This document shows positions 10,651 to 54,214 of a stretch of DNA of 64,000 bases, piece by piece. A program made the position numbers and the translations under genes. The notes under the pieces are model-generated. The model saw only the letters and a list, made by a program, of their open reading frames with translations, was not told the origin of the DNA and did no database searches. How positions within the stretch are numbered: position 1 is the stretch's first letter; each line of letters starts with the position of its first letter. The stretch covers positions 14,260,001-14,324,000 of the forward strand of contig NC_087436.1 of NCBI RefSeq assembly GCF_036321535.1, in the 5' to 3' direction. Source of the DNA: Camelus dromedarius. Taxonomy: Eukaryota.

Positions 10651-11410
10651 CTCAGCTTCCTAAATATTAGCTTTGTTCTTCTTTTTGTATGTTTAATGAC
10701 TCATTTAGAACTGAATCTCAGTATTTTTCTCTATTATGATGTATACTGTCATCTCTAGTCAAATTTTCTTTGTCCAAGAGTCTAGATATTACCAAATGAT
10801 TTAATGCTCTAAATTATCTGTTCCAGCTTCTAGTCTGTAGGCAAGGGATTTCTGCACCTTTTGGCTCTCGGCGAGAAAAAAAGACATAGAAGGAGTCACG
10901 TAAGTTATTGTAAGAAATTGTTAGGAATGCTTAGCTGAATATATGCAGAAAAATAATTTCATTCTGAAATTCGTAATTTGTATTATTGATTTCAGTAGAA
11001 GTATATCACAAATCCGGTCAAGCAAGTTACTGTTTGTTCAGGACACTTAGAGACTAGGTAAGAGACTTCCAGCAGGTGCCTGAATTTACTTATTACTCAC
11101 GCCCAGTTGTGCACAGTATGATCCTTCCTAGGCTCAGGCAGGCTGAGGACTCCTTTTCCTTCCTCTATCCAAGTTCCCTTCGCCTGAAACCTCTAGCTGA
11201 CATCTTCTTTAGGGTACAACTGGATCACTATGTTGACAAAAGTCAGTTGGGCCTTCTTGAAAATTATATGAAATATCTAAAAGAACACCTCAAGAGTCCA
11301 AGCTTATTAAGAGTTCAGCAAATAAGAAATGTAATAAATTACCTCTCAGAATTCTCCTACTGCCATTTTCATCCCCCTCACTCCCCAGGAGTTATTTCAA
11401 ATAATCTTAC

Positions 11411-11632
11411 ATGGAGTTCTAGTGACTTCAAACTCAGGTCAGCAAATGCATCTCCGAGTTGCCTTTGGGTATGCACCATCTGGAAAAGCTGGGTTGACAA
11501 TGTCTGAGCCAGTTTTAGAATATTTTCATATTTCTTCTTGTTATCTCTTAATATATCAATCTGAGCTTCAAGTTCAAGGTCCACAGTTCTTGATCCACGG
11601 CCTAGCTTCTCAGAGATAATCTGCCGAGTGCA
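11411..11632 (-). CDS. ARFIP1: Arfaptin-1 exon, start of AH/BAR domain; CTRQIISEKLGRGSRTVDLELEAQ...SLKSLELH
   Basis: Acceptor ctttcAG, donor CAT|GTAAGA. 222 nt, phase 0-0. Contains the arfaptin-family motif SRTVDLELEAQI. Confidence 0.98.
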
Positions 11633-14600
11633 CTGAAAGTGGAAAGATGTACTTTGTTTAGGAAGAAAAAAAGAACAAAAGAAAAAATAGTAATACAGCA
11701 GCCAAAGTACAAATGCTAGAGCACATGACATACACCATTTCTGGCTTCAAACAAACCAGCCCAACAAACTGAAAATTGTCAGCCCCCTTAGAAGTCCATC
11801 AGAACTCAGAAGGTAAATTTACCAGACATGTCAAATAACTATTACTAATCAGAGGAAGTTTTAAGACTTATCTAGCTAATTTATATCCTGCCAGGTGAGC
11901 TCTCTCACATAACCATCATTCAAGCTTTGTGCACAAGTATCTCAGCTGTTTTAGAGATTATTTAAAGCAACTGAGATACTTGGCATTGATTTATGAACAA
12001 CACTGGACTATTAATATAGGTATAATAAGAATACCAAAATTCCACTCTCCTATTGGTTTCAAAAGCTTTTTTCCTTTCTATCTCCCCCTTAAATAGCTGT
12101 GTATATGTGTGTGAGTAGGAAGAATGAAGGGAAGAAAGGGAGAAGAAAGAAGAAGAAGAGGTGGGGAGGGAGGGGAGATGGGGAGGGACAGAGAAAGAGA
12201 ACAGAGATTCCTGAATTATTCTTCTACTTTTGCCCAGATAGAGTAATATTAAATTATGTTACTCTTTTCTGTCCTAGAAATGATACAGGAACTTGTAATT
12301 TTTTTTAAAGTACCTAATTTCAGAGCACATGGAAATAAGTTTTCCAATAATTTTTGTTAGAAATAAAAAATTATAAGCAAATTCACTACTTAATAATACA
12401 CTTTAAGGGTAACTACATAGGGCATTAATATACTCCTCATCATTTAAAGTTAACAAAAATATTCTAAAAAGTAGTAAATAAGTATTACAGTTTTTTAAAT
12501 TTACAAACTTGCTCTTTTATCACCTCTTTCAAAGTTTTGGTTACAGAATTACTGTTTGTTGAAGAAATTAAAATAATGAACGAAATAAAAGGTGAATTTC
12601 CTCTTCCTTCCTTTAATCTGACTAAATAGTAGAAAACTATTAACAGCTTGATGGGTATAGTCTAGATGCTCCTTAAAATCTATATAATCACATATATAAT
12701 ATTTTTAAAGTAAACATGAAACTATGCTATGCTACACATAATATCCTGAGCATTTCTCGTCTAAAAACAAATCTCTTAAGACTTCTCCCCATCAATATGC
12801 ATAAGTCTATATTTATCCTTTTAATGTTAGCATATTACATGTTACCCATATTTTTTCTACTTAAGATTGAAATGGATTTCTTCACACATTCTCTATTATC
12901 ACCAATTAATGATCTTTATGAATAAACATTTTTTATAAAGGAGTTTTCTTTTAATAGAGAAATAACTACATAGAAAATGATAGGAATGGTGAGAGGCCAA
13001 ACTCACAAAAGGGAGACAAAACTATTTCTACGGAAAACATACAGACACTTCTGGGAGATGAAAATCACAACAGGAGGAAAGTTTAACTGCAGATTTTGTG
13101 ATCTTCATGAGAGAAACATCAGCAAGAAATAATATCTGAAATGGTAACAAGATAAAAGGAGATAAGCCACTCAATCTCACTTTTCATCCACACCAGGACT
13201 TTCCCTATGCAACATAATATTACCAGAGACATTTACTCTACTCGCAAGCCAAAGCATGTGGTCCCTTCCATAGCAACCCAGATATAATAGTCTGTTGAAA
13301 GTCAGGGGCCAGAACTCATTGAAGGGACTTGGTAGATTGGGCAAAACGAAAGAAACGTCTACTGTTGTCTGAATGGTCACTTTTTTCCACAGAAGTAACG
13401 GTTACAAGCAGACAGTAGGGTCAAAGGTTTAACGAGGAAATGCTTTTTGTTTCCTGGAAGCTATGGCAGTGGAAGAAGTAAGGCAACAGTGAATATGAGG
13501 CATAATAAGATAAATCTGGACACTTGAAACAAGTTTTGAAACTGAACTTACAGAGCTTGTAATCCAATATAGGTAACTAATCACTCTTAAGGAAATAAGA
13601 GTGCCACAGAGAGCCTATGTGGAGCTTTGTAAAGAAAACTGTAGTGAGAAAATACAAAATTGCTAGTCATTTCTCCACTCATTAAGGTCCCAGAGCAAGT
13701 TTCTCATATGACCACTGAAGGATAGATTTTTATTTAAGTTGCTTCCTAGTAAATACTGAAATTAAAATACAAAATTAGAGATCGGTATATATAATAAAGC
13801 AAGTTCAAAACAGAAGAGAATTAAGAATCTCAGTTCTTTACCCTTCTTCAAAATTCCTTAAAATGTAGATGACTTCCAATGAGCTGGTGGTCCTACTCAG
13901 TTTTCCATACTTATAAATTAAGAATTCATTTTGAAGCCATCAGGCCAAATAGACCAAAGTTAAAGGGGGGAAAAAGCAAAGGAAATGATTGCCCTACATG
14001 GACCTCCTACTTGGGGGAGGGCAGATAAACAGTGTACGAAACATGAATCATCATCGCGCACACCATGAATTTAAGACAGTCACTGTGTACTCTCAGTATT
14101 TAAATACCGCCAAAGCTTTATCTATAATGCAGAAAAAAAAAGAATTAAACCATTTAAGTACAAAGAAAAGAGTAATTTCATGGCAACAACTGACAGATAT
14201 TAAAAGAGTTGTTAAGAGTGAAGGATAGGGAAGAAGGGAGCATAAAGGGAAATATAAGAAACTGAACAGGAGAAATAGGTCAATCAGTAAATACATAAGG
14301 CAATAGGATAAGAAAAACAAGAATGAAAGTTTAAAAGACACTAGCTTAAAGACCACAATTATTAATTTGATAAAGGTGTGAATACTGATGGTAAATTCTT
14401 AAACATCTAAAAAAAAGCACTGAATGTTTAGGAAAGATAACAGCGCTAAATGCTGAAACTGAGATTATTCTTAAAAAATAACAGGACTTCTAAAAGTACC
14501 CTATTCTACACTAGCAAAATTCAAAGCCAAACGAAAACAATAATAAACCAGAGTTCACCATTCACAATTATTCCTGCAGACGAGAATAATTAAGAAAATG

Positions 14601-25260: not shown

Positions 25261-25313
25261 TCATGTCAAACACCATACAGACTAAAAAGTTGCTATAACA
25301 ATAGGATTGCTTT

Positions 25314-25525
25314 TGTAGATACTGACAGGCATATGCAGAATAGATAAACAAGATTATACTGTATAGCACAGGGAAATATATACAAGATCTTGTGGTAGCT
25401 CACAGCAAAAAAAAAATGTGACAATGAATATATGTATGTTCACGTATAACTGAAAAACTGTGCTCTACACTCGAAATTGACACAACATTGTAAAATGACT
25501 ATAACTCAATAAAAAATGTTAAAAA
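25314..25525 (+). mobile_element. Young, heavily 5'-truncated L1 3' end
   Basis: Perfect 14-bp TSD AATAGGATTGCTTT at 25300-25313 and 25526-25539. Very similar to 51056-51240. Confidence 0.93.
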
Positions 25526-25769
25526 AATAGGATTGCTTTAAATTTAATGAGTTATCTGCTTATTCTTACTATGTTGAACTTTCTGGGCAAGGAAAAAGAT
25601 AAGGTACAGTCCTTGCCTCCCTGGAGAGACAAGATACACAAACATTAATATAAAAGTTGAACTTGGTGCCAAAGTAAAGACAGTATCAGCAGCATTCAGA
25701 ACAGGGACTAAGTTCATGAGAACCGAACAGGAAAGGAGAAAGTACTGCTTGAGCTCTGGAACATAAAGC

Positions 25770-43514: not shown

Positions 43515-45668
43515 GAATGACACTCTCATCACTTCTATTCAACACAGTACTGGAAATCTAGCCATAGCAGTCAGAAAAGAAAAAGAAATAAAAGGGATCC
43601 AAATTGGAATGGAAGAGGTAAAAATGTCACTATATGCAGATGACATGATACTATATATGGAAAATCCTAAAGACTCCACACAAAAACTACTAGAGCTGAT
43701 AAATGAATTCAGCAAAACAGCAGGTTACAAGATTAACATACAGAATTCAGTTGCATTTCTTAACACTAACAATGAAATATCACAAAAGGAAAGTAAAAAA
43801 GAAAAAAAAAACTTTAAAAACTGCATCAAGAAACCAAATACTTAAGAATAAACCTGACTAAGGAGGTGAAAGACTTATACACTGAGAATGTAAAACATCG
43901 ATAAAGGAAATTAAAGATGATTTAAAGAAATGAAAAGCTATCCCATGCTCTTGGACTAAAAGATTTAATATTGTTAAAATGGCCATACTACCCAAAGCAA
44001 TCTACCAATTTAACGTGATCCCTATCAAATTACCCATGACATTTTTCACATAAAGAGAACAAATAATCCTAAAATTTACATGGACTCACAAAAGACTCAG
44101 AATTGCCAAAGCAATACTGAAGAAAAAGAATGAAGCTGGAGGCATAACCCACCAAGAATTCAGACAGTACTACAAAGTTACAGCAATTAAAACAGTATGG
44201 TATAGCACAAAAACACACATATGGATCAACGGATCAGAAAAGAGAGCTTAGAAATGAACCCACAGATTTATGGTCAATCTTCGACAAAGAAGGCAAGAAT
44301 ATGCAATGGAGAAAATACAGTTTCTTCAGCATGTGATGTCGGGAAAGCTGAACAGCCATGTATAAATTAATAAAGTTAGAACATTCCCTCACACTACCAC
44401 AAAAATAAACCCAAAATGGCTTAAAGACTTAAACATGAGACAGGACATCACAAATCTCCTAGAAGAGAACACAGGCAAAATATTCTGACATAAGTTGTAG
44501 CAACATTTTCCTAGGCCAGTCTACAAAGGCAATAGAAATAAAAGCAAAAATAAACAAATGGCACCTAATTAAACATAGGCTTTTGCACAGCAAAGGAAAC
44601 CATAAACAAAACAAAAAGACAACCTACGGACTGGGAGAAAATATTTGCAAATGACAAGGGTTTAACTTTCAGAATATACAAACAGCTCATACAACTCAGT
44701 ATCAAAAAACCAAACAATCCAATCACAAAATGGGCAGAAGATCTAAACAGACATTTCTCCACAGAAGACATACAGATGGCCAACAGGCACATGAAAAGAT
44801 GCACAGTATTGCTAATTATCAGAGAAATACAAATCAAAACTACAATAAAGTATCACCTCATACTGGTCAGAATGTCCATCATTAAAATGTCCACCATAAA
44901 TGCTGGAGAGGGTATGGAGAAAAAGGAACACTCCTACACTGTTAGTGGGAATGTAAATTGGTGTAGCCACTATGGAAAACAGTATAGAGATTCCTTAAAA
45001 AACTAAAAATAGACTTACCATATGACCCAGTAACCCCACTCCTGGACATGTATCTCCAATTAGAAAAGATACATGCACTGTCAATGTTTACAGCAACACT
45101 ATTTACAATAGCCAAGACATGGAAGCAACCTGAATGTCCACTGACAGATGACTGGATAAAGAAGATGTGATAAACACACACACACAATGGAATACTACTC
45201 AGCCATAAAAAGAACAAAATAATGCCATTTGCAGCAACATAGATGGACCTAGAGATTATCATACTAAGTGAAGTAAGTCAGAGAAAAATAAATATCATGA
45301 TATCACTTATATGTGGAATCTAAAAAAAAGACACAAATGAACTTATTTATAAAACAGAAACAGACTCACAGATACAGAAAACAAACTATGGTTACCAAAG
45401 GAGAAAGGGTGGGGCAGCAAGGGATAAACTGGGAGTTTGGAATTAGCAGATACAAACTAGTATATACAGAATAGATGAACAATAAGGCCCTACTGTATAG
45501 CACAGGGAACTATATTCAATATCTTATAATAACCTATAATGAAAAAAATATGAAAAAGACCGTGTATATATATGTGTGTAACTGAATCACTACGCTGTAT
45601 CCTAGAAACTAACACAACATTGTAAACCAATTATACTTCAATTAAAAAAAAAGAAAAAAAGAAGAAGC
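43515..45668 (+). mobile_element. 5'-truncated L1 (RT domain to poly(A))
   Basis: ORF piece [35 protein letters not shown] contains the RT YADD motif. 3'UTR and A tail at about 45644-45668. Possible decayed TSD (aatgggaatg / aaagggaatg). Confidence 0.95.
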
Positions 45669-45689: not shown

Positions 45690-48259
45690 CTAACAAGGAA
45701 AGATCCAGAAAGAGGATCCTCACACTCTTTTTACTCTTATCTAACCCCTAAATGCACCTGCACAGAACAGACTCCACTGAATGCAGCTAATGACAAAAGA
45801 TCTGAATTGAGACCAGAGCTGCCATCCAACAAACAATATCTCTAATGTAAGTCCAGCCAAGAAAATTATCAGCCAAAACAAAGGAAGCAATATTCTTTCG
45901 AGAAAAATAACAGAATCTAAGACTTCCACATCTCAAGTTCAAAATGCAATCTAAAATTACCAGACATATGATGAACCAAGAAGATAAAACATATTTCCAA
46001 GGGAAAAGAAAATCCATCTAATCTGAGATGAACCAGAGATTGGAAGAAACAGATATGGATTTTAAAAACACCTTCAATTAAGTAAAGCAAAATATTTTTA
46101 ATGAATCAAATCTCAGTGAAAAAATAGAAAATCTCAGCACAGAAAAAGAAACAGTAAAAATGAGGCAAATGGACTCTAGAACTGAAAACTATAATTTTTC
46201 AAAGAAAAAAAATCACTGGATGGACTTAGCCAGAAAAAGATAACAGGGTAAAAAGTAAAACTAAATTAAATCAATATAAATTATCCAAGCTAAAGAACAA
46301 AGAGAAAAGAACACTGAAGAAAAAGAGCTTCAGAGACCTATAAGCCAATATTAACTATTCCAATTTATGTGTAATTAAAATACCAGAAGAAGGAGAGAGA
46401 AAAATTGTACAGAAAATGTATTTTAAGAATTAATGGCCAAACTTTTCCCAAACTTGATGAAGGACAAAAATTTATAGATTTAAGATGCTTAATGAACATG
46501 ATGCAGAATAAACACCAAATCCATGCCAAGGGACATCACACAGTCAAATTATTTAAAACCGAAGATAAAGAGCTAACTTCTAGAGCAGCAAGAGAAAAAC
46601 AATATATTACTATCAGGAAACGACAATCCAACTAATGGCTGATTTCTTATCAGATACTATAAAGGCCAGAAGAGAGTGGAACATTGCAGAAAAAAGAAGA
46701 AAACCATCTACCCAGCATTCCATATCCAGTGAAAATACCTTTGAAGAACTAGAAAAGAATATTAAGGGTATTTTCAGATAAAACTAAAAGAACTCATCAC
46801 CAGCAGACCTGTACCCCAAGAAATGCTAAAGGAAGTTCTTCAGGCTGAAAGGAAATAAAACCAGATAGGAACATGGATATTCAGAAAAGAATGAGAAGGA
46901 AATAAAATATTAACTACTTGGGTAAATGCAAAAGACCACTCTTTTTCTTTTTGCCTCTTCCTCAGTTTCTTTATAAACCACACAACTGCTTGAAGCAAAT
47001 GTTATAACATCATTTCTGTGGTTTATAATGTATCTAAATGTAATATATATAAAATACCTATATCAAAGAACAAGGTGGGAGGGTAAGGATATATGGCCTT
47101 AAAAGGTTGCTAAATTTTTGTCTTAAGTGCAGCAGTGTGTTAGTAATTGTCAGTGAAACATGAAGTTTAAGATATATACTATAACTGTTACAGCAACCAC
47201 TAAAAGTATAATGCAAAGTAAAGCTAAAAAATTATCAGGAAAATGAATATGGCATTCTTTAACATATTCAAATAATAAGAAGGCAGTAAAAGAAGAGGAG
47301 AAGGAAAACATAGAAAAGTAAAAAACAAAGAAACTAAAGGGGTGGATACAAAATCAACCATATCAATAACTGCATTAAATACTATTGGAGTAAGCATTTC
47401 AGTTAAAAGGCAGAGACAGTCAGAATGTATTTTTTTTAATGACCATACTATATGCCATATAAGTGAGATGCACTTTAATAACAAAGATATAAATAGACTG
47501 AAAATAAATGGATTAAGAAAGGTAAACTATGCAAAGAGCAGCTGTAAGAACGTCGGCATGGCTTTATTAATACCTGATGAAAGTTTTTAATAAACTATTA
47601 CCAGAGATAATTACCAGGGACGTTTCATAATGATAAAATGATCAATTCATCAGGAATATGTAACAATCATAAATGTGTATGTTGGTCCCAATAACAGAGC
47701 TTCAAAACAAATGAAACAAACACTTACAGAATTAAAAGGAGAAATAGAGAAGTCCACATTCATACTTGGAGACTTTGCCACAAAGCTCAGTGCAATTGAA
47801 AGAACAACTAGACAAAGAAAACTGGCAGAGACACAGAAGTTCTGAACCCTATCAGCCACTTTCGTCTGATATTTACAGAACAATAAACTTAATAATGGCA
47901 GAATACACATTACTTTCATATGAACATGACATGTTTAGCAAAACAGATCATATCATGGGCTCAACAAAACTCAATAAATTTTAAAAAATGCAACCACAGA
48001 GTATGTTATCTGACCACAGTGGAATTTAATTACAATTAATCACAAGAAGATATGCAGAACCTCCTCTCACCCCATTTAGAAACTGAACAACACATCTAAA
48101 TAATTAATGGAAAAAAGAAAAAAATCACTAGGAAGAAAATATTTTGAACTGAATGATAATGAAAATACAATGTATCGATATTTGTGGGATGCACCCAAAA
48201 TGCTTAGAAAAGAAACTTATAACTTTAAATGCTTGTATTCAAATAGAAGAAAGATCTTA
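45690..48259 (+). mobile_element. Old L1 host element (degraded ORF1 and ORF2 endonuclease region); continues at 51262-51312 and 53696-54210
   Basis: ORF1-like SRAAREKQYIT and EN-like ISITALNTIGVSISVKRQR and HDMFSKTDHIMG. The sequence reads continuously when the two TSD-bounded inserts are removed. Confidence 0.85.
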
Positions 48260-51251
48260 GAGAAGCAAAATGGCGGAGTAGAAGGATGCTTGTAGCTCAC
48301 CCTCTCCCACAAATACACACCAAAACTCACATCTATGGACATACTCAGCCAACCAAGAGCACCTGCCAAACTCCGACAGAACATCGCCCTCTTCAAAACA
48401 CAAAGATGCCAAAAATCTGGTAGGAGAAAAGGAAAAAAGAAAGAAGAAAAAGCAAAACAGTGCAGGACCAATCCTGCAGGGAGGGAGCGGCAAAGGAGGA
48501 CTGGCGCGCGTTCACTGGGTCTCCCCTCTCCAATGGAGAGGCCAGCGGGACGGAGGGGGAGGCTTCGAGGCTCAGATCTGCCTCGAGCACCCCTTGACCG
48601 ACAGAACTGAGTTAAATGGGCACAAAGGGTCCCCACAACACCCAGCCCAAGATGTGAGCTGACAGCTGGGGGCCAGGACAGGCTGCCCAAGTTGGGCAGA
48701 GGACTGGGGCAGCTGCACTGAGGCAGCCCTGGGCAACTGCAGGGTGCTGCGCACCATGGCTGGGAGGGGATATGGAGCAGAACCACCTCGGTCCCCTATA
48801 AACTGCGAAAAAAGCAAAGCAACATGGCTGCTGTGCCCTGGGGGAAGGGGCGCCATAGCCTTTGTCTCCTCAGACCTGCGCCGCCATGACTGGCGCTTCT
48901 TGAGAGAAGAGAGGTGGGGCGCAGCCACAGCCGCCATCTCCTCCTATGCGCAGTGCCCAGGCAGGGGAGGGGCCAAGACCTGAATCCACACCCAGGGGCT
49001 CCGCAACCTCCTAGGCAGGACTGAGACTTGTTTACAGCCTGAGGCAGATAGGATCTTTCTGCGCTGGCACCTCAGAGAACTCACACCACCAAGACAAACA
49101 AGGTGCTGAGATTCGGTAAGGAGCAGGAGCAGGGCTGTTTCGCGGTCTTCCCCGAGGCCTCCTCAGAGCACCGACCCCGAGGAACATAGCACCTGACCAC
49201 GATGCTGGGAGGGGACGAGATCTGCCCACCTGCCTCGCCAGAGCTTAGCATCTGACTGCAGCATCGGGAGGGGGAGTGACCCACCCGCCCACCAGGTAAG
49301 AGCTCAGCACCTGACCCAGTGTTGGGAGGGGGCACGATCTGCTAGCCGACAGCCACTGGGAGCAGCACAGACGAGGGCGCCAACAGAGGGCCTCTGGAAA
49401 CAGCAAGCTGAGTTCGCAAAACAGGGTGAAGACACAAAGACCTCTTGAAAAAATCATTAAGAGCACACCGTCTCCAGAACTAGATAACTGATACTCCTTA
49501 AGTCGTAGTGCCAGAGAGATATGAGCAATAAGAAGCAGAGGAACCACTCCCAATTAAAAGATCAAGAGAAATCCCCTAACAGCACAATCAAGGAAATAGA
49601 CATTGATGGCCTACTAGATCAAGATTTCAAAAAAGGAGTAATCAAAGTACTGAAGGAACTAAAAGAGTTTTGAGATATAAAATATGTCAAAAATGAAACA
49701 GAAGCTATAAAGAAGAACCAAGTAGAATTAGTAAACTCATTTGCTGAGATGAGAGCTGACCTAAAAGCTATACAAAGCAGACTAGATAATGCAGAGGAAC
49801 GAATAAGTGACCTAGAAGACAGGACAACAGAAAGCACCTAATCAGAACAGCTGAGAGAAAAACAAATGAAAAACAATGAAAACAATATAAGGGACCTATG
49901 GGATAATATAAAGCGTGCCAATCTATGCATAATAGGGGTTCCAGAAAGGGAAGAAAGAACAAAGGGGATTGAAAAGGTATTGGAAGAAATCATGAATGAA
50001 AACTTCCCAAACCTAAAGGAATCAGAAATCCACTACAGGAGGCTCAGAGGGTCCCAAACAGGAAGAACTCAAATACACCCACACTAAGACATATCATAAT
50101 CAAGATGGCCAGAGTCAAGGATAAAGAAATGATTCCAAAGGCAGCAAGAGAAAAGCAAAGAATGAGTTACAAGGGAACCCCAATAAGGTTTTCAGCTGAT
50201 TTTTCTACACAAACACTACAGGCCAGAAGGGAGTGGCAAGATATATTCAAAGTCCTGAATGAAAAAAAGATGCAGCCTAGGATACTCTATCCAGCAAGGC
50301 TATCCTTTAGAATAGAAGGAGAGACAAAAAAACTTCACAGACAAGCAAAAACTAAAAGAGTTTAGCAACACTAAACCCATGCTAAAAGAAATATTGACAG
50401 GTCTACTCTAAGTAGAAAAGCAGCAGGATGCTACAAAAATGAGAAACTCATAACTGGAAAGGAGATAACTGCCATGAATTACAAAAAGAATAAAGACAAA
50501 ATTGTAAAAGAAGACATCTAAATCATTAAGAGTGAGAGAGGGAAGCAAGGAAAGCCACTGTTGAAAACAGTATGGAGATTCCTCAAAAGACTAGGAATAG
50601 ACTTACCATATGACCCAGGAATCCCGCTCCTGGGCATATATCCAGAAGGAACCCTACTGCAAAAAGACACCTGCACCCCAATGTTCACAGCAGCACTATT
50701 TACAATATTCAAGACATGGAAACAGCCTATATGTCCATCAACAGATGACTGAATAAAGAAGCTGTGGTATATTTATACGATGGAATACTATTCAACCACA
50801 AAAACCGACAACATAACACCATTTGCCGCAACATGAATGTTCCTGCAGAATGTCATTCTAAGTGAAGTAAGCCAGAAAGAGAAAGAAAAATACCATATGA
50901 GATTGCTTATATGAGGCATCTAGAAAAAAAAAAACAAAAAAACAAACAAAAAAACAAATACAAAACAGAAACAGACTCATAGACATAGAATACAAACTTG
51001 TGGTTGCCAAGCGGGCAGGGGGTGGTAAGGGACAGACTGGGATTTTAAAATGAAGAATAGATAAACAAGATTATACTGTAGAGCACAGGGAAATATATAC
51101 AAGATCTTGTGGTAGCTCATAGCGAAAAAAAAAAATGTGACAATGAATATATATATGTTCATGTATAACTGAAAAATTGTGCTCTACATTAGAATTTGAC
51201 ACAACATTGTAAAACGACTATTATTCAATAAAAAAAGTAAAAAAAAAAAAA
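48260..51251 (+). mobile_element. Young 3-kb L1 derivative: 5'UTR, ORF1, short spacer, ORF2 extreme C-terminus, 3'UTR and poly(A)
   Basis: 5' start ...AAAATGGCGGAGTAGAAGG; ORF1 ATG at 49521 to TAA at 50411 (disrupted); junction to the ORF2 end at about 50553; poly(A) about 51228-51254; TSD AAAGATCTTA at 48250-48259 and 51252-51261. Confidence 0.93.
49521..50411 (+). pseudogene. Disrupted L1 ORF1
   Basis: Fragments NIRDLWDNIKRANLCIIGVPE and KAAREKQRMSYKGTPIRFSADFSTQTLQARREWQDIFKVL lie in different frames. Confidence 0.9.
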
Positions 51252-51308
51252 AAAGATCTTAAACCGACAATCTAAGATTGCACCCTAAGAAAACAGAAAA
51301 CAAGCAAA

Positions 51309-52004
51309 TTAATCAGCTGAGAGCCTTATGGGGGTTCCCTTGTAACTTACTCTTTGCTTTTCTCTTGCTGCCTTTAGAATCATTTCTTTATCCTTGACTC
51401 TGGCCATCTTGATTATGATATGTCTTGGTGTGGGTCTATTTGGGTTCTTCCTGTTTGGGACCCTCTGAGCTTCCTGTACTTGGATATCTGATTCCTTCTT
51501 TAAGTTTGGGAAGTTTTCAGTCATGATTTCTTCAAAAACCTTTTCAATCCCCTTTGATCTTTCTTCTCCTTCTGGGACCCCTATTATGCGAAGATTGGGA
51601 CGCTTTATATTATCCCATAGATCCCTTATGCTATTTTCATTATTTTTTATTTGCTTCTCTTGTAGTTCTTCTGAATGGGTGCTTTCTATTGCCCTGTCTT
51701 CTAGATCACTAATTCGTTCCTCTGCATTATCTAGTCGGCTTTGCACAGCTATTCGATCATTCCTCATCTCTGTCAATGAGTTTACCCATTCTATTTGGCT
51801 CTTCTTTATAGCTTCAATTTCATTTTTGACATATTTTATATCTCTAAACACTATCTCTTTTAATTCCTTCAGCAATTCGATCACTCCTTTTTTGAAATCT
51901 TGGTCTAGTACGCTATCGATGTCTATTTTGTTGATCTTTCTTTCAGGGGATTTCTCTTGTTCTTTTAATTGGGAAAGGTTTTTATGCTTCTTCATCTTGC
52001 TCAT
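51309..52004 (-). CDS. Open, C-terminally truncated L1 ORF1p (231 aa); expression unknown
   Basis: Uninterrupted ORF with coiled coil, RRPNLRIIGVPE-type motif (KRPNLRIIGVPEGEE) and TPRHIIIK. The stop codon comes from the TSD. Confidence 0.6.
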   Translation of the reverse strand: MSKMKKHKNLSQLKEQEKSPERKINKIDIDSVLDQDFKKGVIELLKELKEIVFRDIKYVKNEIEAIKKSQIEWVNSLTEMRNDRIAVQSRLDNAEERISDLEDRAIESTHSEELQEKQIKNNENSIRDLWDNIKRPNLRIIGVPEGEERSKGIEKVFEEIMTENFPNLKKESDIQVQEAQRVPNRKNPNRPTPRHIIIKMARVKDKEMILKAAREKQRVSYKGTPIRLSAD

Positions 52005-53695
52005 ACCTCTTTGGCACTGTGGTTTATGGAGTATCAGTTGTTTATTTTGGTCCTTAAGGATTTTATCTATCTGATGCCTATTTAGGAATAGAACTTAGGA
52101 AAAAAAAAGAAAAAAAATAAGAGAGAGAGAGAAAGAATTTTAAAAGAAGGGAGAAAGAGGGTTTGAAAACAGTGTATAATGAATAATAGAAGAGTGAGTT
52201 GAAGCAGAATATTAATCGGGTTGAGACGTCCTTTTGAAACCTTTACAAAAAAAGGGGGGGGAGATGAATAGATGTATTTGAAAACTGTGTCTAATCAATA
52301 GCAGGACATCAAAACCCAAGAGAAATAGAAATGAATTAAGAAGTAAAGATTAAGAGAGTAATAGAAAATAGAACAGGTAAAAACAGATTTAAAAAAAAGG
52401 GGGGGGGGTTGTTGGTGTTCTCCTGGAGTCTGTGTGCTTTTAATGTGAAGTCTTTCTGTCTTCGTCCTGTTTTGGAAGCTCAGCTTGCTGTTTTCAGAGG
52501 CCCTCCGTTGGCGCCCTCTTCTGTGCTGCTCCCAGCACCTGTCGGCAAGCAGATCGCGCCTCCTCCTAACACTGGGTCAGGTGCAGCTCTCTGCTGTGGG
52601 CGGGCGGGTCGCTGCCCCTCCGGATGCCGCAGTCAGATGTTGCAGACTGGCCGGGTAGGAGGGCGGGTCGTGCCCCCTCTCAGCACCTCGGTCAGGGGCT
52701 GTGTTCCTGCCCGAAAGGCGGGGTGCTGCTCTCACTCTACCTGCGCCGCCGCCGTAGCTCCGCTGCTCTGTGCGGCTGCATGCTCCGCCCTGGTCGGTGC
52801 TCCGCCCTGGTGGCGCTCCGCGGGTGCGCTCGGGGAAGACCGAGGGACAGCCCTGTCCCTGCTCCGAGTCAAAACCCAGCTCCTTGTTTGTCTTTGTGGA
52901 GCAAGTTCTCTGAGGGACCAGGACGGAAGGATCCTATCTGCCCCGGGCTGCAGGCCAGTCTCAGTCTGGCCTTTGAGGATGCTAAGCCCTTCGGTGTGGA
53001 TGCAGGTTTCGCCCCCGCCCCCGCCTGAGTGCTCACCGCCGAGGATATGGCGGCTGTGCCTGAGCCCCGCCTCTCTTCCCCCGAAAACTTTCCGCGGGTT
53101 TTCAGAGATGGGGGTGTGCACCCTTCCCCCGAGAGCACATCAACCTTGCTGTTTTATGGAGGGCCCAGGTTGTTCTGCCCTGTGCACCCACAGCCATGGC
53201 ACGCAGCCCCTTGCATTCCCCCGGGGCTGCCTCCGTGCAGCCACTTCTGTCCTCCACCTGGCTTGTGCAGCCTGGCCCTGCCCGCGGCTGCCGGCCCGCG
53301 TCTCAGGCTGGGTGTCGGGGGGACGCTCTGTGCCCGTTTAACTTAGTTCTGTTAGTCAAGGGCTGCTCTGTACAGATCCGAGCCTCGGAGGCTCCCCCTC
53401 CGTCCCGCTGGCCTCTCAGTTGGAGAGGGGAGACCCAGCGAGCGAGCGCCAGTCCTCCTTTGCCGCTCCCTCCCCGCGGGACCTGTCCCGCGCTGCTTTG
53501 CCTTTTGTTTTTTCTTTTTTCCTTTTCTCCTACCAGATTTTTGGCGTCTTTATCTTTTGAAGAGGGCGATGTTCTGTCGGAGTTCCACAGGTGCTCTGGT
53601 TGGCTGAGTGGGTCTGTAGATGTGGGTCTTGGTGTATTTGTGGGAGAGCGTGACCTGCGAGCGTCCTTCTACTCCGCCATCTTCTCCCGGGTGTC
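51313..53695 (-). mobile_element. Young L1 5' portion (complete 5'UTR and first 231 codons of ORF1), no 3' end or poly(A), bounded by a TSD
   Basis: Minus-strand start GACACCCGGGAGAAGATGGCGGAGTAGAAGG; CpG-rich. Perfect 17-bp TSD GAAAACAAGCAAATTAA at 51296-51312 and 53696-53712. Confidence 0.95.
52500..53695 (-). promoter_or_regulatory. CpG-island-like L1 5'UTR (putative internal Pol II promoter)
   Basis: Dense CpG and a YY1-type AAGATGGCGG motif at the 5' end; an internal promoter here is established for L1. Confidence 0.65.
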
Positions 53696-54214
53696 GAAAA
53701 CAAGCAAATTAAACTAAAAGTAAGCTATAGGAAGGAAATAATAATAAAGACCAAAGATTACAGAAATAGCAGAAAAACTGGCCTGCATATTTCAAAAAGG
53801 TTAAGCTCATAAAAAAACAAAAGTAGATGAATTACTGCAGCATAAAAGGACAAGATAAATGACAGCTAAACACAATGCACAATATGGCCTAGATCACAAA
53901 GTAGGAAAAAACTAGCTGTAAAGGTTATTACTGGAACAACTGGATTAAATAACAGTATTGTACCAATTTCCTAAATACATTTTGTAATTCTGATAAATGT
54001 GCTGAGGTTATATAAGACAAAGTCCTTGTTCTTAGGTATAAAAGGACCTGATGTCTGCAAATCACTCTCAAATGGTTCAAAAAAGAAGAAACTATACATA
54101 GAGAGAAAATGTTAAAGTAAATGGGACAGAACAATGATTGGTGAATCTGGGTAAAGAGATTAAGTTGTCTGTATGAAACTTTATAAAAATTTAAAGTTTT
54201 AAAAATAAAAACAC

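Follow-up and report, generated by a model that had tools for sequence, protein, structure and literature searches.

Does an L1 retrotransposon that keeps its 5' untranslated region (5'UTR), the whole span of its first open reading frame (ORF1) and its 3' end, and lacks nearly all of ORF2, represent a copy damaged once, a member of a non-autonomous family or the product of RNA splicing? The question is raised by a 3-kb element at positions 48250-51261 of a 64,000-nucleotide stretch of the dromedary genome (Camelus dromedarius, RefSeq assembly GCF_036321535.1, contig NC_087436.1, positions 14,260,001 to 14,324,000 of the forward strand; hereafter the window), which an initial annotation, made from the letters alone, took for a candidate HAL1-like or spliced L1 family. 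The structure described there was confirmed, whereas the interpretation is unproven. The reading that we favour, with a slightly better than even chance, is that the element is a single, internally deleted and now dead L1; this and the likelihoods given below for all other readings are judgements from the evidence combined with base rates.

The element is a genuine L1 insertion of camelid type, with a target-site duplication (TSD) and a poly(A) tail. Its body, on the plus strand (48260-51251, 2,992 bp), is bounded by an exact 10-bp repeat, AAAGATCTTA, which occurs twice in the window, as the left TSD at 48250 (48250-48259) and the right TSD at 51252 (51252-51261), and at no other position there, and which can be extended to a 19-nt match (84%) reaching into the A-tail. 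Within this single TSD, and in the order initially proposed, lie a GC-rich 5'UTR with decayed CpG sites (48260-49520), recognised by homology to a neighbouring L1 copy; an ORF1 of full span, but broken, aligning with the camelid ORF1 subfamily of protein P0226 (49521-50411) and matching PF02994 and PF17490 (Transposase_22 and Tnp_22_dsRBD in Pfam) at 50030-50329; the first 143 nt of the inter-ORF spacer (50412-50554; initially put at about 140 bp), identified through the homologous spacer frame in protein P0088; the last 122 codons of ORF2 with the stop (50555-50923), 88% identical to the dromedary protein P0002; a 3'UTR (50924-51226) with 92.8% identity over 195 paired nt to a fragment at 25.3 kb of the window; and an AATAAA signal, at 51227, with the poly(A) tail (51227-51251). 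The 5'UTR and ORF1 are both homologous to the neighbouring copy, which lies on the opposite strand. The host sequence is itself an old L1 (~45800-48249, 51262-51312 and 53713-53790), and in-silico removal of the element and of the neighbouring L1, with one TSD copy removed for each, left this old L1 open in one frame across both sites, indicating that the TSD is real and that both L1s are true insertions. The two sides of the internal junction are in sense orientation with no inverted segment between them, so the element does not have the structure of a twin-primed, 5'-inverted insertion.

The break itself reads GGAAAG/CCACTG and falls at 50554/50555, about 2 nt to the right of the initial estimate near 50553 (AG/CC at 50553-50556). 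It aligns, as initially reported, with GTGTAG/CCACT (starting at 44961) and GTGCAG/TCACT (starting at 2801) in two other L1s of the window, in both of which AG precedes the homologous ORF2 site. An 854-aa dromedary ORF2 protein aligns to the element solely downstream of the junction, and the CX3CX7HC zinc knuckle of dromedary ORF2 proteins stops 4-5 residues upstream of the position of the break. Thus, not only the endonuclease and reverse transcriptase domains, the absence of which had been noted before, but also the zinc knuckle have been lost; the final 123 codons (including the stop) are all that remains of ORF2, and the element falls outside the autonomous L1s, which have an ORF2 with both enzymatic domains. 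In pig L1, ORF2 is ~3,800 bp long and the spacer measures 390-529 bp (PMC6501411; for this and the other papers cited below, statements apply to the portions of each text that were available). Scaled to these dimensions, the gap would be ~3.7-3.8 kb, running from the middle of the spacer up to the bases right behind the zinc knuckle of ORF2, and ~90% of ORF2 would be absent. The nearest named proteins to the remnant are L1 ORF2 fragments from Camelus dromedarius (85-92% identity over the matched part). A 105-aa UniRef entry named painted turtle (P0004), which hardly differs from the C-termini of dromedary L1 ORF2, is probably a contamination.

A fusion reading frame starting from the ATG at 50474, in frame with the ORF2 remnant, was considered and rejected, given a stop 11 codons before the junction. 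P0088, the one related spacer-frame protein, ends at the same point as the spacer frame of the element and is devoid of the methionine at 50474. With the spacer frame closed 11 codons ahead of the junction, copies carrying this junction would have no usable start, and protein databases are blind to it. The absence of a spacer-side match at the junction among 86 protein hits (104 candidates) was accordingly given no weight, and the same blindness applies to the 20 proteins of the dromedary cluster, of which 17 continue upstream into normal ORF2 and 2 begin downstream, while an unrelated N-terminus is found in 1 and the spacer in none.

The element encodes nothing today, with both ORF1 and the ORF2 remnant broken. 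ORF1 is interrupted by stop codons at 49671 and 49839 and shifts frame near 50033 and again near 50329, besides carrying 3 small deletions that keep the frame, and the remnant has 3 premature stops (50750, 50834 and 50912) and neither a frameshift nor an indel across its 122 codons. The 5'UTR shows 30 CpG decays versus 2 in the neighbouring copy, indicating that the element is the older of the two. The remnant departs from the majority of 17 dromedary-type proteins at 15 of 122 residues, against 4-15 among those proteins themselves; in ORF1, 11 of the 140 shared columns carry private changes. A HAL1 lineage that kept ORF1 under selection once ORF2 was lost should show faster decay in the remnant. 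With references drawn from mixed subfamilies, the difference between 15/122 and 11/140 is not significant (p=0.30), so that nothing points to the remnant having been carried for long as non-coding sequence in a lineage.

The affiliation of the element bears directly on how its other gaps are to be read. At the 31 residues that are diagnostic between P0226 and P0105, the element agrees with P0226 at 22 and with P0105 at 7, the remaining 2 matching neither, whereas ORF1 of the neighbour is 97% identical to P0105, an intact 300-aa ORF1. Together with the divergence of the 5'UTRs (77-88% identity by segment), this result shows that the neighbour does not represent the parent type. The initial annotation had further listed a ~400-bp T-rich 5'UTR block and ~25 bp of 3'UTR as missing, and had argued from several deletions in one element to a streamlined, ORF1-only lineage. 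Alignment to the neighbour, the 25.3-kb piece and older L1s bears out both gaps: the element has no counterpart of the T-rich block of the neighbour after 49477, and near 51050 it lacks ~25 nt of 3'UTR that the 25.3-kb piece and two older L1s retain. However, as the comparison copies belong to other subfamilies, the argument loses most of its force without being disproved; the two gaps may be subfamily traits rather than demonstrably private deletions of the lineage of this element. The 25.3-kb piece (25300-25541) is a 214-bp, 5'-truncated L1 3' end with a 14-bp TSD, 93% identical to the 3'UTR of the element and still possessing the 25-nt segment, and may be the marker of an intermediate subfamily. 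Ten ORF1 proteins in ENA (P0227-P0236) are of the same ORF1 type as the element and end in an identical frameshifted C-terminus, which suggests that they derive from a single locus, either by its duplication or amplification or as its alleles.

If the element is a one-off deletion, the RNA of a full-length L1 from an older camelid subfamily would have been inserted by target-primed reverse transcription into the ancient L1, a step shown by the TSD, the poly(A) tail and the seamless host frame. The ~3.7-3.8 kb between the middle of the spacer and the end of the zinc knuckle would then have been deleted in a single event, with an overlap between the breakpoints that is probably no longer than a few bases. 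The loss could have taken place at insertion, through a template jump of the reverse transcriptase or end-joining of unfinished cDNA, or later in the chromosome, and neutral decay of the copy would have followed. Template jumping and microhomology-mediated joining have been described as routes to rearranged L1 insertions, and internally deleted insertions form a recognised class, which one genome survey set apart under the label 'uncharacterized' (PMC2912911). Several considerations nevertheless weigh against a one-off deletion. The spared parts, namely the whole promoter, the complete ORF1 span and the 3' end, make up the layout that HAL1 families keep and that a random deletion need not produce, and a randomly chosen window should be more likely to catch one of hundreds of copies of a family than a unique deletion. 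Moreover, little decay of the remnant would be expected of a young HAL1 as well, rat RNHAL1 being 98% identical to an active L1 over the 5' 2600 bases (PMC2241872), so that a young family would show the same pattern of decay as observed here.

These considerations favour what we regard as a tentative alternative, possible rather than probable, in which the element is a decayed member of a HAL1-type family that amplified in camelids, descended from a deleted master that would have supplied ORF1p in cis and relied for its copying on ORF2p provided in trans by full-length L1s, the scheme put forward for HAL1 (PMC5753468, PMC5786205, PMC2241872). HAL1 is an established mammalian class with repeated origins (PMC5753468, PMC5786205, PMC13756887): several have arisen independently in mammals (PMC5753468), with ~7500 copies in rat (PMC2241872) and HAL1_Ssc in pig (PMC6501411), and the anatomy of the element, with ORF1 present and the ORF2 enzymatic domains absent, matches this class. 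Its ORF1 type is also distinct from that of the neighbour and has further representatives (P0226 and the P0227 cluster), and the two UTR gaps could reflect streamlining of a lineage. Yet, the excess of decay in the ORF2 remnant over ORF1 is not significant, and the ten members of the P0227 cluster, with their one common frameshifted end, resemble one duplicated locus rather than independent insertions. Searches without real power showed the junction nowhere else, and no camelid HAL1 was found in a literature search that covered neither Repbase nor Dfam. The available portion of a survey of camelid transposable elements does not mention ORF1 or ORF2 (PMC8605555), and that of a paper on the casein locus gives only the Repbase name L1-2_Vpa and a bat HAL1 hit (PMC6726744); PMC5203782, PMC2837659 and bioRxiv 2024.08.27.596794 served as background only. 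The collections searched do not contain camelid DNA, so the blanks obtained from them say nothing on the uniqueness of the junction. The spacer motif was found in none of the viral contigs and gave 3 hits in prokaryotic metagenome-assembled genomes, which we take as probable chance matches of a purine-rich 20-mer; the ORF2 motif just past the junction was not found in metagenome, viral or GTDB contigs; the spacer frame, searched as protein, was confirmed in 0 of 32 and 0 of 355 stretches; P0226 gave one weak match (39%) among 8 viral-contig stretches and none among 163 in GTDB; and plasmid and phage collections yielded no match. Similarly uninformative on the copy number or orthology of the junction is the share of 336 sampled words contained in sequencing runs. 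Of 24 runs, 14 from 7 studies and with 3 organism codes, none recorded as RNA, contain 0.53-0.59 of these words and 6 RNA runs contain 0.11-0.41, the other 4 being unindexed raw reads.

The placement of the break right after an AG had been considered compatible with splicing, that is, with an L1 RNA spliced from a donor in the spacer to an acceptor just past the zinc knuckle and retrotransposed once in trans as a dead end of the SpIRE kind. The AG is indeed carried by the homologous ORF2s, and the left side ends in AAG, as exon ends often do. That much of the proposal stands, but AG precedes 7.0-7.5% of the positions in the ORF2s of the window L1s, so that chance accounts for its presence at the break, and the surroundings of the acceptor are unfavourable. 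Scored on two older window L1s as proxies for the true parent, the would-be acceptor is without a polypyrimidine tract (31% pyrimidine over the 16 bases from -20 to -5, in both), and 122 of 134 and 98 of 110 AG sites, respectively, score equal or better. Furthermore, splicing takes out the AG at the end of an intron, so under this reading the AG that is seen would have to come from the left side and be followed by GT in the parent. Spliced L1 retrocopies account for ~2% of full-length primate L1s; the splices described for SpIREs are those within the 5'UTR and from the 5'UTR to ORF1 (PMC5860796). Splicing is therefore disfavoured, and a single spliced retrocopy appears improbable. An undescribed camelid half-L1 family, the master of which would have been born by splicing from the spacer to just past the zinc knuckle and then amplified in trans, we consider highly improbable. 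The T-rich block of the neighbour ends, at 52050-52110 on the minus strand, in an all-pyrimidine tract with an AG behind it, which makes a strong acceptor-like site some 75 nt upstream of ORF1; the gap of the element ends elsewhere than at this AG. Two further explanations were weighed. Template switching between two L1 RNAs would have taken the 3' end from one and the 5'UTR, ORF1 and spacer from the other, in line with the older P0226 type of ORF1 versus a remnant like the commonest dromedary C-terminus; with similar decay in both halves, such a chimera is very unlikely. The other is an assembly misjoin inside a repeat, to which we attach an almost negligible likelihood: the window contains no N, the sequence shared at the junction, apparently 1-2 nt on the ORF2 side, would be too short for an overlap misjoin, and the intact TSD and host frame count against it.

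The neighbouring L1, younger and of another subfamily, occupies 51313-53695 on the minus strand and comprises 2.4 kb of 5' sequence only, namely the 5'UTR and the first 231 ORF1 codons, which are open, without a 3' end or tail. It is flanked by a perfect 17-bp TSD (51296-51312 and 53696-53712) with an A-rich start on the plus strand, and the L1 and its TSD overlap by 2 nt (51311-51312). This structure is consistent with twin priming or internal priming that left hardly any poly(A)-primed sequence, and related variants of such L1 insertions have been described (PMC2837659). Two young L1s of different subfamilies reside in the same old L1, tail to tail and ~35-50 bp apart, their ORF1 and 5'UTR forming a 2-kb inverted repeat with 77-93% identity. 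Elsewhere in the window, an open reading frame at 11378-11731 on the minus strand contains an exon-like stretch that may resemble a coding exon of arfaptin (ARFIP); if this is the case, the L1s of the window would be intronic, with the element antisense to the gene.

The single deletion, the HAL1-type family and the one-off spliced RNA are all of already known kinds, and the readings differ in consequence. A single-copy element would be an ordinary dead repeat, relevant to annotation only. A junction common to many loci would add one more independent HAL1 origin, with a clean, datable breakpoint close to the parent L1, and would help to ask how ORF1-only L1 parasites start and why ORF1 is kept. 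Only a splice-born amplified family would surprise specialists: if true, it would tie the birth of a HAL1 to L1 splicing and provide an exception to the view of spliced copies as dead ends.

Set beside known systems, the element is closest in sequence to camelid L1, with an ORF2 C-terminus 88% identical over 123 aa to dromedary ORF2 proteins such as KAB1262767.1 and an ORF1 that, by segment, is 78-89% identical to P0105 and 76-85% to P0226; unlike these, it would be short of ~90% of ORF2, judging from the length of pig ORF2. SpIREs, described as dead on arrival, resemble it in a full-length 5' end, an internal gap, a TSD and a poly(A) tail, but are spliced within the 5'UTR or from the 5'UTR into ORF1, with ORF2 left in place, whereas here ORF2 is lost and the acceptor context is poor (PMC5860796). 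With HAL1, such as rat RNHAL1 and pig HAL1_Ssc, it shares the 5'UTR, ORF1, the absence of both enzymatic domains, an L1-type 3' end, the poly(A) tail and the TSD, and both would need ORF2p in trans. HAL1 is a multi-copy family by definition, whereas the element is known here from one copy, and, unlike HAL1, its ORF1 is dead and 369 nt of ORF2 are kept in frame. The element thus behaves as a dead L1 of HAL1-like anatomy, for which membership in a HAL1 family is possible rather than probable. Compared with internally deleted single L1 insertions, no difference was apparent, and the element is like them in its intact TSD and poly(A) tail, its one internal gap and its uninverted junction.

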